The notes under the pieces: generated by a model
What the model was told of the DNA's origin: nothing
What the model saw: only the letters and a program-made list of their open reading frames with translations
Database searches by the model: none
Origin: Escherichia coli
Lineage (GTDB): Bacteria > Pseudomonadota > Gammaproteobacteria > Enterobacterales > Enterobacteriaceae
DNA: 64,000 bases
NCBI RefSeq assembly: GCF_050920415.1
Contig: NZ_CP169309.1
Direction: 5' to 3' (one strand)
Shown: piece by piece, positions 9,272 to 15,721 of the stretch
How positions within the stretch are numbered: position 1 is the first letter of the stretch
Layout of the letters: every line of letters begins with the position of its first letter
Position numbers and translations under genes: made by a program

Positions 9272-9832
9272 ATGAGTAAGTTTGCCAAAACAGCCATTGC
9301 TGCCGCAATGGTGATGGGCGCAGTTGTCTCCGCGTCAGCATTTGCTGCAGGCAACAACGGTACTGCACGTTTCTACGGCACCATTGAAGACTCCCCGTGC
9401 TCTATCGTTCCAGACGATCACAAACTGGAAGTGGATTTAGGTAACATCGGTGCCGAAGTACTGAAAAACAACGGGACTACCACGCCGAAAGATTTTCAGA
9501 TTCGTTTGCAGGACTGCGTATTTGAAACCCAAACGAACATGGAAACGACGTTCACCGGTAACGTTTCTACGGGAAACGAGAATTACTACACCATTTTTAA
9601 TACCGATACAGGTGCTGCGTTTAACAATGTAAGCCTGGCGATTGGTGATAAGCAAGGTACTTCCTATAAAAGCGGTGCTGGCATTAAACAGGCGATCGTA
9701 AATGACTCAGCAACCAATAAAGGCAAACCTAAACAGACTCTGAACTTCAAAGCCTGGTTAGTCGGTGCGACGGGTACGCCTGACCTGGGTGGTTTTGAAG
9801 CGAATACCACTTTCCAGATTACCTATCTCTAA
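9272..9832 (+). CDS. yfcV: Fimbrial major subunit (chaperone-usher pilin), Yfc fimbriae
   Basis: 186-aa product with signal peptide, fimbrial-type Cys pair and C-terminal beta strand; AAGGA SD; first gene of the operon. Confidence 0.9.
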   Translation: MSKFAKTAIAAAMVMGAVVSASAFAAGNNGTARFYGTIEDSPCSIVPDDHKLEVDLGNIGAEVLKNNGTTTPKDFQIRLQDCVFETQTNMETTFTGNVSTGNENYYTIFNTDTGAAFNNVSLAIGDKQGTSYKSGAGIKQAIVNDSATNKGKPKQTLNFKAWLVGATGTPDLGGFEANTTFQITYL

Positions 9833-9842
9833 GGTAATTCAC

Positions 9843-9873
9843 CCCCATAGCATCTCGCTATGGGGGATTTTGG
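9843..9873 (+). terminator. Intrinsic, probably partial, terminator after the major pilin gene
   Basis: Hairpin cccccatagc-atct-gctatggggg followed by ATTTTGG; typical attenuating hairpin between pilin and usher genes. Confidence 0.65.
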
Positions 9874-9904
9874 CGAGTTTTTGGACTTATTATAATAATC
9901 ACGG

Positions 9905-13853: not shown

Positions 13854-14338
13854 AAAAACACTTGTTCCTTTTACTCTGCACCTGCGGTGGCGTTGCGCTG
13901 GCGGCTGACGATGACATCACCTTCCACGGTACGCTGGTGGCACCGCCTGTCTGTGCTATCAGCGATGGAAAGACCCTCGAAGTGGAATTTCGCGATCTCA
14001 TCATCGACAGTATCAACGGGGACTATGGCCGCAAGGAAGTGGAATATGACCTGAGCTGTGACTCTGACACGCGCGATCCCGAGTGGATTATGACGCTCAC
14101 CTGGACGGGGACGCCGACCGCCTACAATAACGCGGCTATCGAAACAGACGTTCCCGGCTTTGGTATTGAGCTTCAGCATGATGGTCAGCGTTTTGTGTTG
14201 AATACTCCGCTTGCCATTAACGCCACCGATTTTACCCAAAAGCCGAAGCTGGAAGCCGTGCCAGTGAAGTCAGCCGATGCGGTGCTGAGTGATACCACGT
14301 TTTCAGCCTATGCAACATTGCGGGTGGATTATCAATGA
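13850..14338 (+). CDS. yfcQ: Fimbrial minor subunit
   Basis: 162-aa pilin-like product with signal peptide; ATGA overlap with yfcP. Confidence 0.85.
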   Translation: MKKHLFLLLCTCGGVALAADDDITFHGTLVAPPVCAISDGKTLEVEFRDLIIDSINGDYGRKEVEYDLSCDSDTRDPEWIMTLTWTGTPTAYNNAAIETDVPGFGIELQHDGQRFVLNTPLAINATDFTQKPKLEAVPVKSADAVLSDTTFSAYATLRVDYQ

Positions 14339-14874
14339 AGACAGAACGTATTTATTCGCTCGGCTATGGGCTGTTAGCGGGCCTGCTGTTGATCGGCAGC
14401 ACGCGTGCCCTGGCCGTGGACAACAACCTGCATTTTTACGGCAACTTACTCAGCCGCTCTTGTACGCTGGTGGTTGAGAGCGGGAATCTGGCCGAAGTCC
14501 ATTTTCCGACTATCAGTCGTCGGGATCTTATGGCTACGGGGGAGTCTGCGCACATACCGGTGGTGTTTAAGCTGAAAGATTGTAAGGGGCCCGCGAGTTA
14601 TCAGGTCCAGGTGACCCTTACCGGTACGGAAGACAGTGAGCAGCCCGGTTTCCTGGCGCTGGATACCACATCAATCGCGCAAGGCGTCGGAATTGGGATG
14701 GAAACGACGGACGGTGTACGGGTGGCGATTAACAACCCCTCCGGGGCGAAATTCACGCTTAGCGATGGCAGCAATAATATTAATTTCAGGGCCTGGCTAC
14801 AGGCGAAAAGCGGTCGGGAAGTAACGATGGGCGATTTTACCGCCAACCTGACGGCAACCTTCGAGTATATATAA
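14335..14874 (+). CDS. yfcP: Fimbrial minor subunit
   Basis: 179-aa pilin-like product with signal peptide. Confidence 0.85.
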   Translation: MKTERIYSLGYGLLAGLLLIGSTRALAVDNNLHFYGNLLSRSCTLVVESGNLAEVHFPTISRRDLMATGESAHIPVVFKLKDCKGPASYQVQVTLTGTEDSEQPGFLALDTTSIAQGVGIGMETTDGVRVAINNPSGAKFTLSDGSNNINFRAWLQAKSGREVTMGDFTANLTATFEYI

Positions 14875-14875
14875 T

Positions 14876-15721
14876 ATGAAAAAATGGATGATTTGTTTCG
14901 CAAGTCTGATATTACTTGCTCTCAGTTTAGGAACCCCAAAGAGCTATGCTGGTGATAAGCTCTACAGCTCAAGCTTTCCAGGGACTGCAGTATATTATGC
15001 AATGAATAATGCCTCTATGCAGGGTACTTTATATTACTATGTTACGGTATTAACGCCAAAAGAAGTCGCTTATGGTCAATACAATGCAACACGCGCGGGG
15101 AGAGGCGATACTCTCCCGGTAATATCCTGGACCGGCTCAGGTCCGGCACCAAAGCTAGTGCTGGCTGACTGGGGCCGCACAGATAGCTCAAACTGCCCAG
15201 GTATGAATACGACTATATATGTCTGCGGATTTATGACTTTTAATGTCACGGTCGCATCTGATGATTATGGCTGCCCATGGATTGCCTCTCTTTATTCAGT
15301 TGCCCAGGCCAGTGGATTTAGTGCATATACAAGTCCAACAGTGAGTCGTACTGTTTGTCCAACAATTCCAGTATCTTCTTATGATATATCCTGGAGTGAT
15401 AGTTATGTTAGCCATTCTAAAACGTTGCAATTACAATCCAATGGTTCAACCATCACGACAACGCTTTCGACCTATTTGATGGAAAGTGGCAATCTCTGCG
15501 ATGGCAGTAATTTTGATGCCAGAGGAGCATACTGTCGTGCAGTTTCAGATTTATTAACGTTTACCTCTTATGGTTGCGATAATGCAAAGGTGACAGTCAC
15601 ACCGACACGTAAACCGTTAACGGATAGAAAACTCCACGACATTGTGGTGAAGGTGAATACCAGTAGTCGGCAACCGATTGATTCTACGTGCCGTTTCCAA
15701 TATGTCTTAAATGAATTGTAA
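14876..15721 (+). CDS. yfcO: Secreted Cys-rich protein YfcO (DUF2544), terminal gene of the fimbrial operon, possible tip adhesin
   Basis: 281-aa product with signal peptide and many Cys; gene is visibly more AT-rich than the upstream operon genes. Confidence 0.8.
   Translation: MKKWMICFASLILLALSLGTPKSYAGDKLYSSSFPGTAVYYAMNNASMQGTLYYYVTVLTPKEVAYGQYNATRAGRGDTLPVISWTGSGPAPKLVLADWGRTDSSNCPGMNTTIYVCGFMTFNVTVASDDYGCPWIASLYSVAQASGFSAYTSPTVSRTVCPTIPVSSYDISWSDSYVSHSKTLQLQSNGSTITTTLSTYLMESGNLCDGSNFDARGAYCRAVSDLLTFTSYGCDNAKVTVTPTRKPLTDRKLHDIVVKVNTSSRQPIDSTCRFQYVLNEL

Follow-up and report, generated by a model that had tools for sequence, protein, structure and literature searches.

Organization of the yfc locus

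The window, that is, the whole stretch of 64,000 nucleotides analysed here, carries seven co-directional open reading frames on the plus strand (9272-15721) between sixA (8239-8724) and smrB (yfcN; 15779-16330, minus strand), each with a single terminal stop. They are homologues of yfcV (9272-9832, 186 amino acids), yfcU (9905-12553, 882 amino acids), yfcS (12573-13322, 249 amino acids), yfcR (13338-13853, 171 amino acids), yfcQ (13850-14338, 162 amino acids), yfcP (14335-14874, 179 amino acids) and yfcO (14876-15721, 281 amino acids), in the order found at the same locus in K-12, and yfcO is convergent with smrB. The genes are closely packed, with gaps of 72 nt (yfcV/yfcU), 19 nt (yfcU/yfcS) and 15 nt (yfcS/yfcR), two 4-bp ATGA overlaps (yfcR/yfcQ and yfcQ/yfcP) and a 1-nt spacer at the yfcP/yfcO junction (TAATATG). 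The first-pass annotation had described a seven-gene yfc chaperone-usher operon with ATGA and TAATG junctions. Our results agree with it in the exact coordinates, the integrity of all parts and the ATGA overlaps, and correct TAATG to TAATATG.

The usher gene and the lesion in K-12

The yfcU homologue (9917-12553, or from 9905; plus strand) encodes an outer-membrane usher covered end to end by the Pfam domains PapC_N (residues 34-180), Usher (198-756) and PapC_C (767-823), with E-values from 1e-15 to 1e-184. The NCBIfam model NF011812 scored 1809 bits (cut-off, 972), whereas the next model reached 1120 bits, which was under its own cut-off. The frame contains neither an internal stop nor a frameshift and encodes 882 amino acids from the first ATG (9905). 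It is likely that translation starts at the ATG at 9917, giving 878 amino acids, because PGAP places the start there in a near-identical genome, the K-12 protein aligns from this position and the upstream ATG is ATA in K-12.

K-12 yfcU (b4661) is a RefSeq pseudogene in which a single TAC-to-TAG change has placed one in-frame stop at codon 579; the window reads TAC (Tyr) at the equivalent position, 11642-11644. Alignment of the window's usher with those of K-12, uropathogenic CFT073 and enterohemorrhagic O157 86-24 revealed no stop or frameshift in the window, and only the K-12 gene was broken. Thus, both the uninterrupted usher frame claimed earlier (882 amino acids, with 878 likelier) and the disruption of the K-12 usher were confirmed. 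The implication that an intact usher sets this strain apart did not hold, as among 5,426 complete genomes only 363 contained the exact 61-bp K-12 segment with the TAG. Carriers sampled from these were K-12 or laboratory-type strains, the NCTC86 usher has TAC at codon 579, and intact ushers were also found in O157 86-24, CFT073, EC42405, 2017-02-2CC and 06-00048. Yfc was previously reported as a core-associated fimbrial type that was intact in all genomes examined in that study (Wurpel et al., 2013; PMC3559732). This usher is normally intact, the broken K-12 version being the exception, and its integrity scarcely characterizes the strain.

Chaperone and pilins

The YfcS homologue (12573-13322, plus strand) is a periplasmic chaperone with Pfam domains PapD_N and PapD_C, and its best NCBIfam match is StfD. 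In its sequence we read an Arg as residue 8 of the mature protein (SVTPDRTR) and an RIKLFWRP motif, and we take Arg8 and the RIKLF motif to correspond to the subunit-binding residues of PapD. All four pilins, also encoded on the plus strand, have a signal peptide, an N-terminal extension, a conserved Cys pair and a C-terminal strand with a penultimate Tyr. The major pilin YfcV (9272-9832; best NCBIfam matches StfA and SteA) contains the pair Cys43/Cys82, ends with ITYL and is 83% identical to K-12 YfcV. The three minor pilins are YfcR (13338-13853; best matches StfE and SteD; C-terminal VVDYQ), YfcQ (13850-14338; StfF and SteE; RVDYQ) and YfcP (14335-14874; StfG and SteF; TFEYI), the last of which may, judging from gene order, be the adaptor adjoining the tip protein. 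YfcR is only 59-61% identical to its K-12 counterpart and 84-87% identical even to those of clade-I strains with identical flanks.

The putative tip adhesin YfcO

The last gene of the operon, yfcO (14876-15721, plus strand), is intact and encodes a member of the StfH/YfcO (DUF2544) family, with a match to Pfam PF11245 at residues 56-281 (E = 2e-73). No NCBIfam model matched this protein. It is 39-42% identical overall to K-12 YfcO (26% in the N-terminal half and 60% in the C-terminal half), and comparison with the K-12, E200086 and P. corydidari proteins gave 25-27% and 60-66% for the two halves, respectively. Most invariant alignment columns, including four of the eight invariant Cys, lie in the C-terminal half. 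The pattern of the StfH/YfcO family, a variable N-terminal half that is putatively receptor-binding and a conserved C-terminal half, is therefore seen in the window's YfcO. A search for similarity to PapG or any solved structure detected none. In a donor-strand test, the N-terminal extension of YfcP was fused to mature YfcO and the model collapsed (pLDDT of 61, with values below 50 in the C-terminal domain and of 24-27 in the added tail); it was built from a shallower alignment of 23 sequences whose tail columns were artificially invariant, conditions under which the collapse speaks neither for nor against donor-strand acceptance. In Salmonella, exchange of StfH alleles alters cell binding (PMC5343171). 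By analogy, YfcO is a putative tip adhesin.

Regulatory region and hairpins

Just past the sixA stop, an inverted repeat with 11-nt arms (91% complementary) is followed by TTTTTT (8731-8765, plus strand). This hairpin probably terminates sixA transcription, in which case yfc would be transcribed as a unit of its own. The very AT-rich region downstream (8766-9271, plus strand) is the presumed yfc promoter and regulatory region, and it is allele-specific: identity to K-12 is 55-59% and the two sequences are not alignable. The 547-bp sixA-yfcV spacer has a GC content of 26.9%, compared with 51% for both operon and window, a composition suggesting that the region may be silenced by H-NS. Promoter-like sites were found by consensus match only at 8827-8856 and 8892-8919. 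A phase switch of the fim or pap type, such as an invertible fimS-like element, was sought in this region; only short imperfect inverted repeats and one GATC site were present, and none of these looked like such a switch.

Ten nucleotides past the yfcV stop, a GC-rich 10-bp hairpin (CCCCCATAGC / GCTATGGGGG; 9842-9866, plus strand) lies within a 96-nt fold (9825-9920) with a minimum free energy of -27.7 kcal/mol (z = -2.97). Its stem is kept in K-12, O157, 06-00048, P. corydidari and P. vendiensis, whereas the spacer around it diverges, and in 06-00048 both arms carry paired insertions. The hairpin is probably a partial terminator or mRNA stabilizer that raises the ratio of the major pilin to the other products, presumably as in pap and fim. 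A perfect 14-bp hairpin (CTTTCACCGACCAG-TTAG-CTGGTCGGTGAAAG; 15729-15760) was read from the sequence between the convergent yfcO and smrB; it could terminate transcription in both directions, although it has no T-run and was not called by the terminator scan. At gathering thresholds, Rfam gave no known RNA family within 8500-16500.

Lineage and divergence of the operon

The flanks of the window are 99-100% identical to those of EC42405 and 2013C-4282, two strains previously placed in Escherichia cryptic clade I (PMC10100065), and on sequence grounds the window is assigned to this clade rather than to typical E. coli. The Yfc type has been defined by locus position and usher phylogeny (PMC3559732). 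Here, the operon lies between sixA and smrB, an arrangement common to K-12, O157 and CFT073, and in pairwise comparison the usher has 84% amino-acid identity to K-12 YfcU over its full length. The classical chaperone-usher components are all present, namely a three-domain usher, a two-domain PapD-like chaperone and pilins with the expected features. We conclude that the region very probably represents an intact Yfc-type chaperone-usher fimbrial operon at the sixA-smrB locus of a cryptic clade I strain. The yfc operon, the Yfc fimbrial type and the K-12 pseudogene are already annotated or catalogued, and about 90-100 public contigs already carry named entries for the exact YfcV, YfcU and YfcO proteins of the window.

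Although the flanks are 90-96% identical to K-12 (93-96% in the operon comparison), the operon shows 76% nucleotide identity and its proteins are 39-88% identical. It is a rare and strongly divergent allele. Synonymous divergence from K-12 is approximately 1-2 in the yfc genes for which it could be estimated and is saturated for yfcR and yfcO, compared with 0.21-0.25 in the flanking genes. The closest other alleles are those of E69 and 06-00048 (87-94% amino-acid identity) and E. whittamii (82-89%). Across all clade-I genomes examined, yfcV to yfcS is 97-100% identical and continuous with the identical flanks. The genes at the tip end, yfcO most of all, differ sharply even between clade-I strains with near-identical flanks. 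Given its rarity, its divergence and its mosaic adhesin end, the allele probably has a receptor specificity other than that of K-12, O157 or uropathogenic Yfc.

Proposed assembly and maintenance

The seven products would be exported by Sec, after which YfcS would cap the periplasmic subunits through donor-strand complementation and YfcU would polymerize them at the outer membrane through donor-strand exchange. Gene order and analogy with Stf and Pap suggest that YfcO would enter first, at the tip, followed by YfcP, YfcQ and YfcR and finally by the YfcV rod. Transcription probably begins upstream of yfcV, within the stretch of 27% GC, and is likely silenced in laboratory culture, and the conserved hairpin past yfcV would adjust the ratio of pilin to machinery upward. 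From its coding sequences, the operon could support the assembly of fimbriae. Forced expression of K-12 yfc was reported to improve binding to bladder cells with no detectable fimbriae (summarized in PMC5343171).

A different explanation is that the operon is a silent relic with no present role, intact merely because an inactivating mutation has yet to occur. Six loci carry independent single lesions in different genes: usher stops in K-12 (TAG579), E200086 (TGA244) and P. vendiensis (TAG149), a yfcV frameshift in 06-00048, a yfcO stop in MFDS1022581 (TAG144) and an IS2 in 2EC1. In MFDS1022581, the best-matching genome, the only difference from the window over 15 kb is a C>T change at 15305, which turns yfcO Gln144 into TAG and leads PGAP to call a pseudogene. 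Such frequent lesions in relatives suggest that selection may be weak or intermittent. The 27% GC of the upstream region is also typical of silenced fimbrial promoters, and the yfc genes have been called cryptic (PMC3559732). However, dN/dS is 0.07-0.12 for yfcV, yfcU and yfcS in comparisons with K-12, 06-00048 and P. vendiensis. Over such deep synonymous divergence, these values indicate a history mostly under purifying selection and functional alleles maintained in the long term. Moreover, no two of these recent lesions are alike, species across Escherichia have kept the operon at sixA-smrB, and StfH alleles show measurable binding phenotypes (PMC5343171). Thus, we consider the silent-relic explanation unlikely and favor a functional operon.

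Occurrence in Pseudocitrobacter and probable exchange between genomes

A copy of the block with 97.8% identity is present in Pseudocitrobacter vendiensis, where the seven genes occupy that genus's own locus, and this points to transfer between genera. The homology extends from 40 bp before yfcV to 2 bp after yfcO. These limits, the 97.8% identity and the contrast with K-12 between operon (76%) and flanks (93-96%) would all fit an operon that came from Pseudocitrobacter or another enterobacterial genus and replaced the native yfc, but this origin is quite improbable: the yfcV-yfcS part is shared by all clade-I genomes examined (97-100%) and contiguous with identical flanks, the next relatives are the Escherichia alleles of E69, 06-00048 (87-94%) and E. 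whittamii (82-89%), P. corydidari, a second species of Pseudocitrobacter, has an allele with only 60-80% identity, and the P. vendiensis operon is 71% identical to that of its congener, compared with 83-94% for the flanks. On these grounds, transfer from Escherichia to Pseudocitrobacter is the more economical direction. Composition gave no signal of foreign origin, as the GC content of the operon (51%) equals that of the window. A PLSDB megablast with the operon provided no evidence of a plasmid vector; its five matches had 76-79% identity and came from records of 0.4-4.9 Mb that resembled mislabelled chromosomes.

Beyond the Escherichia-to-Pseudocitrobacter direction, a broader joint reading has, in our view, about an even chance of being correct. 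The yfc locus would consist of exchangeable modules, with recombination between otherwise near-identical strains swapping the yfcR-yfcO end and, most of all, the N-terminal half of YfcO; whole operons would also cross genera, each displacing the allele already present in the recipient although the two loci are not homologous (from clade I to P. vendiensis, sixA-smrB to sspB-nanR); and YfcO/DUF2544 would act at the fimbrial tip, with a fold that no solved adhesin shares. The analysis also brought to light a fimbrial locus whose alleles diverge very deeply, turnover of the putative adhesin in close relatives and a near-identical operon in another genus. These observations are relevant to the use of yfcV as a typing marker and to studies of adhesin-driven host tropism in cryptic clade I; intestinal pathogens have been described as emerging from this clade (PMC10100065).

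Comparison with known fimbrial systems

Similarity to Pap (P) pili, the type member of the pi clade, is seen in the PapC- and PapD-type domains of the window's usher and chaperone. Pap genes are arranged with the major pilin first, then usher, chaperone, minor pilins and terminal adhesin, and the window has the same order. Unlike pap, it has no papI/papB-type regulator genes in or beside the operon, and no similarity between its DUF2544 tip protein and PapG was detected.

Intact seven-gene operons are present at the same locus in O157:H7 (ECs3216-3222) and uropathogenic CFT073. The O157:H7 cluster is >95% identical to that of E. coli W, and a distinct pi-type cluster at this site in W and O157 has already been noted (PMC3032704). 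Protein identities to the window (YfcV, YfcU, YfcS, YfcR, YfcQ, YfcP and YfcO, respectively) are 82, 85, 80, 51, 44, 53 and 76% for O157 and 75, 76, 77, 58, 60, 71 and 44% for CFT073. That O157 YfcO is nearer to its window counterpart than O157 YfcR, YfcQ and YfcP are to theirs shows reassortment inside the operon. The K-12 operon (yfcOPQRS-yfcU'-yfcV, b2332-b2339) shares the locus, the seven genes, their order and the overlapping junctions, with 84% identity for the usher and 83-88% for the chaperone. It differs in TAG579 of yfcU, in the 76% nucleotide identity described above, in YfcR and YfcO (59-61% and 39-42%) and in the upstream region, which cannot be aligned.

Stf of Salmonella enterica (stfACDEFGH) is also among the closest known systems: the matching Stf component was the best NCBIfam match for six of the seven window proteins (StfA, the PRK15284 usher subfamily, StfD, StfE, StfF and StfG). 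YfcO belongs to the family that NCBI names StfH/YfcO, and StfH likewise has a variable N-terminal and a conserved C-terminal half (PMC5343171). Apart from the usher subfamily model, the scores of these matches lay under the equivalog cut-offs, indicating that the window proteins are orthologue-level relatives and not Stf itself. In E. coli, Yfc corresponds to the Stf fimbriae of Salmonella.

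Organization of the yfc operon

The seven yfc open reading frames that the first-pass annotation had placed at 9272-15721 were all found there, on the plus strand and each with a single terminal stop codon: yfcV (9272-9832), yfcU (9905-12553), yfcS (12573-13322), yfcR (13338-13853), yfcQ (13850-14338), yfcP (14335-14874) and yfcO (14876-15721), which are listed in the ORF table with 186, 882, 249, 171, 162, 179 and 281 aa, respectively. The operon lies between sixA (8239-8724, plus strand) and smrB (15779-16330, minus strand), and in K-12 it is likewise flanked by these two genes. 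Regarding the gene junctions, described earlier as ATGA and TAATG, the former could be confirmed as 4-bp overlaps at two junctions, but the yfcP/yfcO junction reads TAATATG with a 1-nt spacer; the remaining intergenic gaps are 72, 19 and 15 nt.

Family searches agreed with these assignments. The Pfam domains PapC_N, Usher and PapC_C span the whole usher, which scored 1809 bits against NCBIfam NF011812 (curated cut-off 972), and the yfcS product contains PapD_N and PapD_C. The top matches of the four pilins were Salmonella StfA, StfE, StfF and StfG, and all four have a signal peptide, a cysteine pair and a penultimate tyrosine. The yfcO product belongs to DUF2544 (PF11245) and is named 'StfH/YfcO family fimbrial adhesin' by NCBI.

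The 547-bp spacer between sixA and yfcV (26.9% GC) could not be aligned with K-12 and contains promoter-like sites, identified by consensus match only. A hairpin followed by a T-run 3' of sixA (8731-8765) probably terminates the sixA transcript. Directly 3' of the yfcV stop codon is a 10-bp GC-rich hairpin (9842-9866), which was kept in all alleles examined, including that of Pseudocitrobacter, while the spacer around the stem diverged; strain 06-00048 carries matching insertions in both arms. Its probable role, judged from pap and fim, is to adjust how much pilin is made relative to the assembly machinery. Between yfcO and smrB there is another hairpin, a perfect one of 14 bp (15729-15760). 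At the left end of the window, an Asn-rich ORF of 399 aa (838-2037, minus strand) was observed between the mlaA-like and fadL genes; the 1.7-kb stretch containing it had no counterpart in the loci of E. whittamii and Escherichia sp. E1V33. It may be the counterpart of K-12 yfdF.

Integrity of the usher

No stop codon or frameshift was present in the usher frame of the window, as previously proposed. Translation probably begins with the ATG at 9917 (878 aa), considering that PGAP uses this start in a near-identical genome, that the K-12 alignment begins there and that the upstream ATG is ATA in K-12. The earlier statement that the K-12 usher is disrupted also proved correct: yfcU (b4661) is a pseudogene in RefSeq, and its translation contains a single in-frame stop at codon 579, which is TAG in K-12 and TAC (Tyr) in both the window and NCTC86.

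On the other hand, the idea that an intact usher distinguishes this strain did not hold. The exact 61-bp K-12 segment with the TAG codon was found in 363 of 5,426 complete genomes; those carriers that were sampled were K-12 or laboratory strains. Most of the remaining matches were off by one base. The usher was uninterrupted in O157:H7 86-24, UPEC CFT073, EC42405, 2017-02-2CC and 06-00048, and Yfc has been described as core-associated and, alone among such clusters, as intact in every genome examined (Wurpel et al., 2013; PMC3559732). Thus, an intact usher is the rule and K-12 the exception. According to earlier work, as summarised in PMC5343171, forced yfc expression in E. coli increased binding to bladder cells but fimbriae were not detected, which would be in keeping with the K-12 usher lesion.

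Lineage of the window and divergence of the yfc alleles

Identity to K-12 over all 64 kb was 92.6-96.5%. Only 21 of 5,425 matching complete 'E. coli' genomes had a left flank at least 95% identical, including EC42405 and 2013C-4282, which belong to cryptic clade I (PMC10100065). These matches place the source of the window in clade I. The top match, MFDS1022581 (CP169399), differs by one base in 15 kb.

The operon was only 76% identical to K-12 at the nucleotide level, far below its flanks. In global alignments, identity to K-12 was 83% for YfcV, 84% for YfcU, 83% for YfcS, 61% for YfcR, 78% for YfcQ, 71% for YfcP and 42% for YfcO, in comparison with 95-99% for flanking proteins. Synonymous divergence from K-12 was approximately 1-2 in the yfc genes for which it could be estimated (yfcR and yfcO were saturated) versus 0.21-0.25 in two flanking genes, sixA and prmB (16495-17427), so the fimbrial alleles are several-fold older than the chromosome around them. 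dN/dS was 0.07-0.12 for yfcV, yfcU and yfcS. Taking both measures together, we read the yfc alleles as ancient lineages maintained by purifying selection. Just 42 of 5,424 matching genomes carried an operon with 90% or higher identity to that of the window.

A mosaic adhesin end

Identities to the window were further compared strain by strain, using best tblastn hits, whose values differ slightly from those of global alignment. For YfcV, YfcU, YfcS, YfcR, YfcQ, YfcP and YfcO in this order, they were 99, 99, 97, 84, 93, 96 and 43% in E200086 (clade I); 99, 100, 98, 87, 94, 95 and 81% in EC42405 (clade I); 97, 97, 97, 85, 90, 94 and 64% in 2017-02-2CC; 82, 85, 80, 51, 44, 53 and 76% in O157 86-24; 75, 76, 77, 58, 60, 71 and 44% in CFT073; and 82, 84, 88, 59, 78, 71 and 39% in K-12. 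The first three strains matched the window closely outside the operon (SixA, SmrB and PrmB 99-100% identical; flanks 98-100% at the nucleotide level), and the flanks of 2017-02-2CC, which is not itself named clade I in PMC10100065, were 100% identical in amino-acid sequence. Despite such flanks, their tip ends diverged sharply, most of all in YfcO and to a lesser extent in YfcR. Judged from these comparisons, the tip-end genes from yfcR to yfcO (13338-15721) are mosaic among strains with near-identical flanks. In O157, YfcO was nearer to the window than YfcR, YfcQ and YfcP were.

Most of the YfcO divergence falls in residues 26-165, which share 25-27% identity with K-12 and E200086, and residues 166-281 were 60-66% identical; the same variable/conserved pattern has been reported for StfH (PMC5343171). 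In a protein search, E. coli YfcO alleles formed a near-continuum from 98% down to 39% identity. A confident AlphaFold2 model built with 50 homologues (pLDDT 87, pTM 0.77) was nearly all beta-strand. Profile comparison with the pilins of the operon and a sequence search of the PDB gave no match for YfcO, and a donor-strand fusion model, whose alignment was shallower than that for YfcO alone and had artificially invariant tail columns, collapsed. The putative adhesin role is therefore based on gene position, the variability pattern and the StfH experiments, and not on an established pilin or lectin fold.

A nearly identical operon in Pseudocitrobacter

Scanning of species-representative genomes revealed a 99% identical usher in Pseudocitrobacter vendiensis CPO20170097T. 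The DNA that it shares with the window was exactly the seven-gene block (window 9232-15723; 128-6622 of Pseudocitrobacter locus L005/L024), with 97.8% nucleotide identity and unrelated flanks. The genes after the block in P. vendiensis are nanR-nanA-nanT-nanE. P. corydidari also has a yfc/stf-like operon at this sspB-nanR position, so Pseudocitrobacter seems to have a locus of its own for the operon here. The P. corydidari proteins were only 45-80% identical to those of the window, and the two Pseudocitrobacter species shared 83-94% identity in the flanks versus 71% in the operon. The yfcO-nanR junction was found in three assemblies, one of which was 99.7% identical and hence a distinct sequence, not a duplicate. 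Since the yfcV-yfcS part of the window allele, judged by protein identity, nests within Escherichia diversity, transfer from Escherichia to Pseudocitrobacter is the more economical direction. The shared block implies that a whole operon was replaced across genera, probably in that direction.

Proteins labelled E. fergusonii and Pseudocitrobacter sp. 73 fall in the same 90%-identity cluster as the usher (9917-12550), a hint that this allele family has spread more widely among species. Fragments 73-83% identical to this usher are also encoded by a metagenome-assembled genome labelled Collinsella sp., on three short contigs. Since this is an outer-membrane usher of proteobacteria and the bin is actinobacterial, contamination during binning is the almost certain explanation.

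Recurrent lesions in yfc loci

In a small and non-random sample of loci, independent single lesions were found in differing genes of differing strains: usher stops in K-12 (TAG, codon 579), E200086 (TGA, codon 244) and P. vendiensis (CAG to TAG, codon 149), a yfcV frameshift in 06-00048, and an IS2 insertion listed under the match in 2EC1. In MFDS1022581, the C>T change at 15305 converts Gln144 of yfcO to TAG, and PGAP annotates a pseudogene; yfcO of the window is intact. These observations suggest that an operon otherwise under purifying selection undergoes frequent recent decay, and they show that intactness is not guaranteed in any single strain. Their recurrence, within the limits of this sample, also supports the minor alternative that the operon of the window is silent and has merely not yet been hit.

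Comparison with known systems

Public databases already contain this type of operon, the pseudogene of K-12 and the exact proteins of the window (found on 91-104 contigs). The divergent clade-I allele, the mosaicism of the adhesin end and the copy in Pseudocitrobacter are by-products of modest interest.
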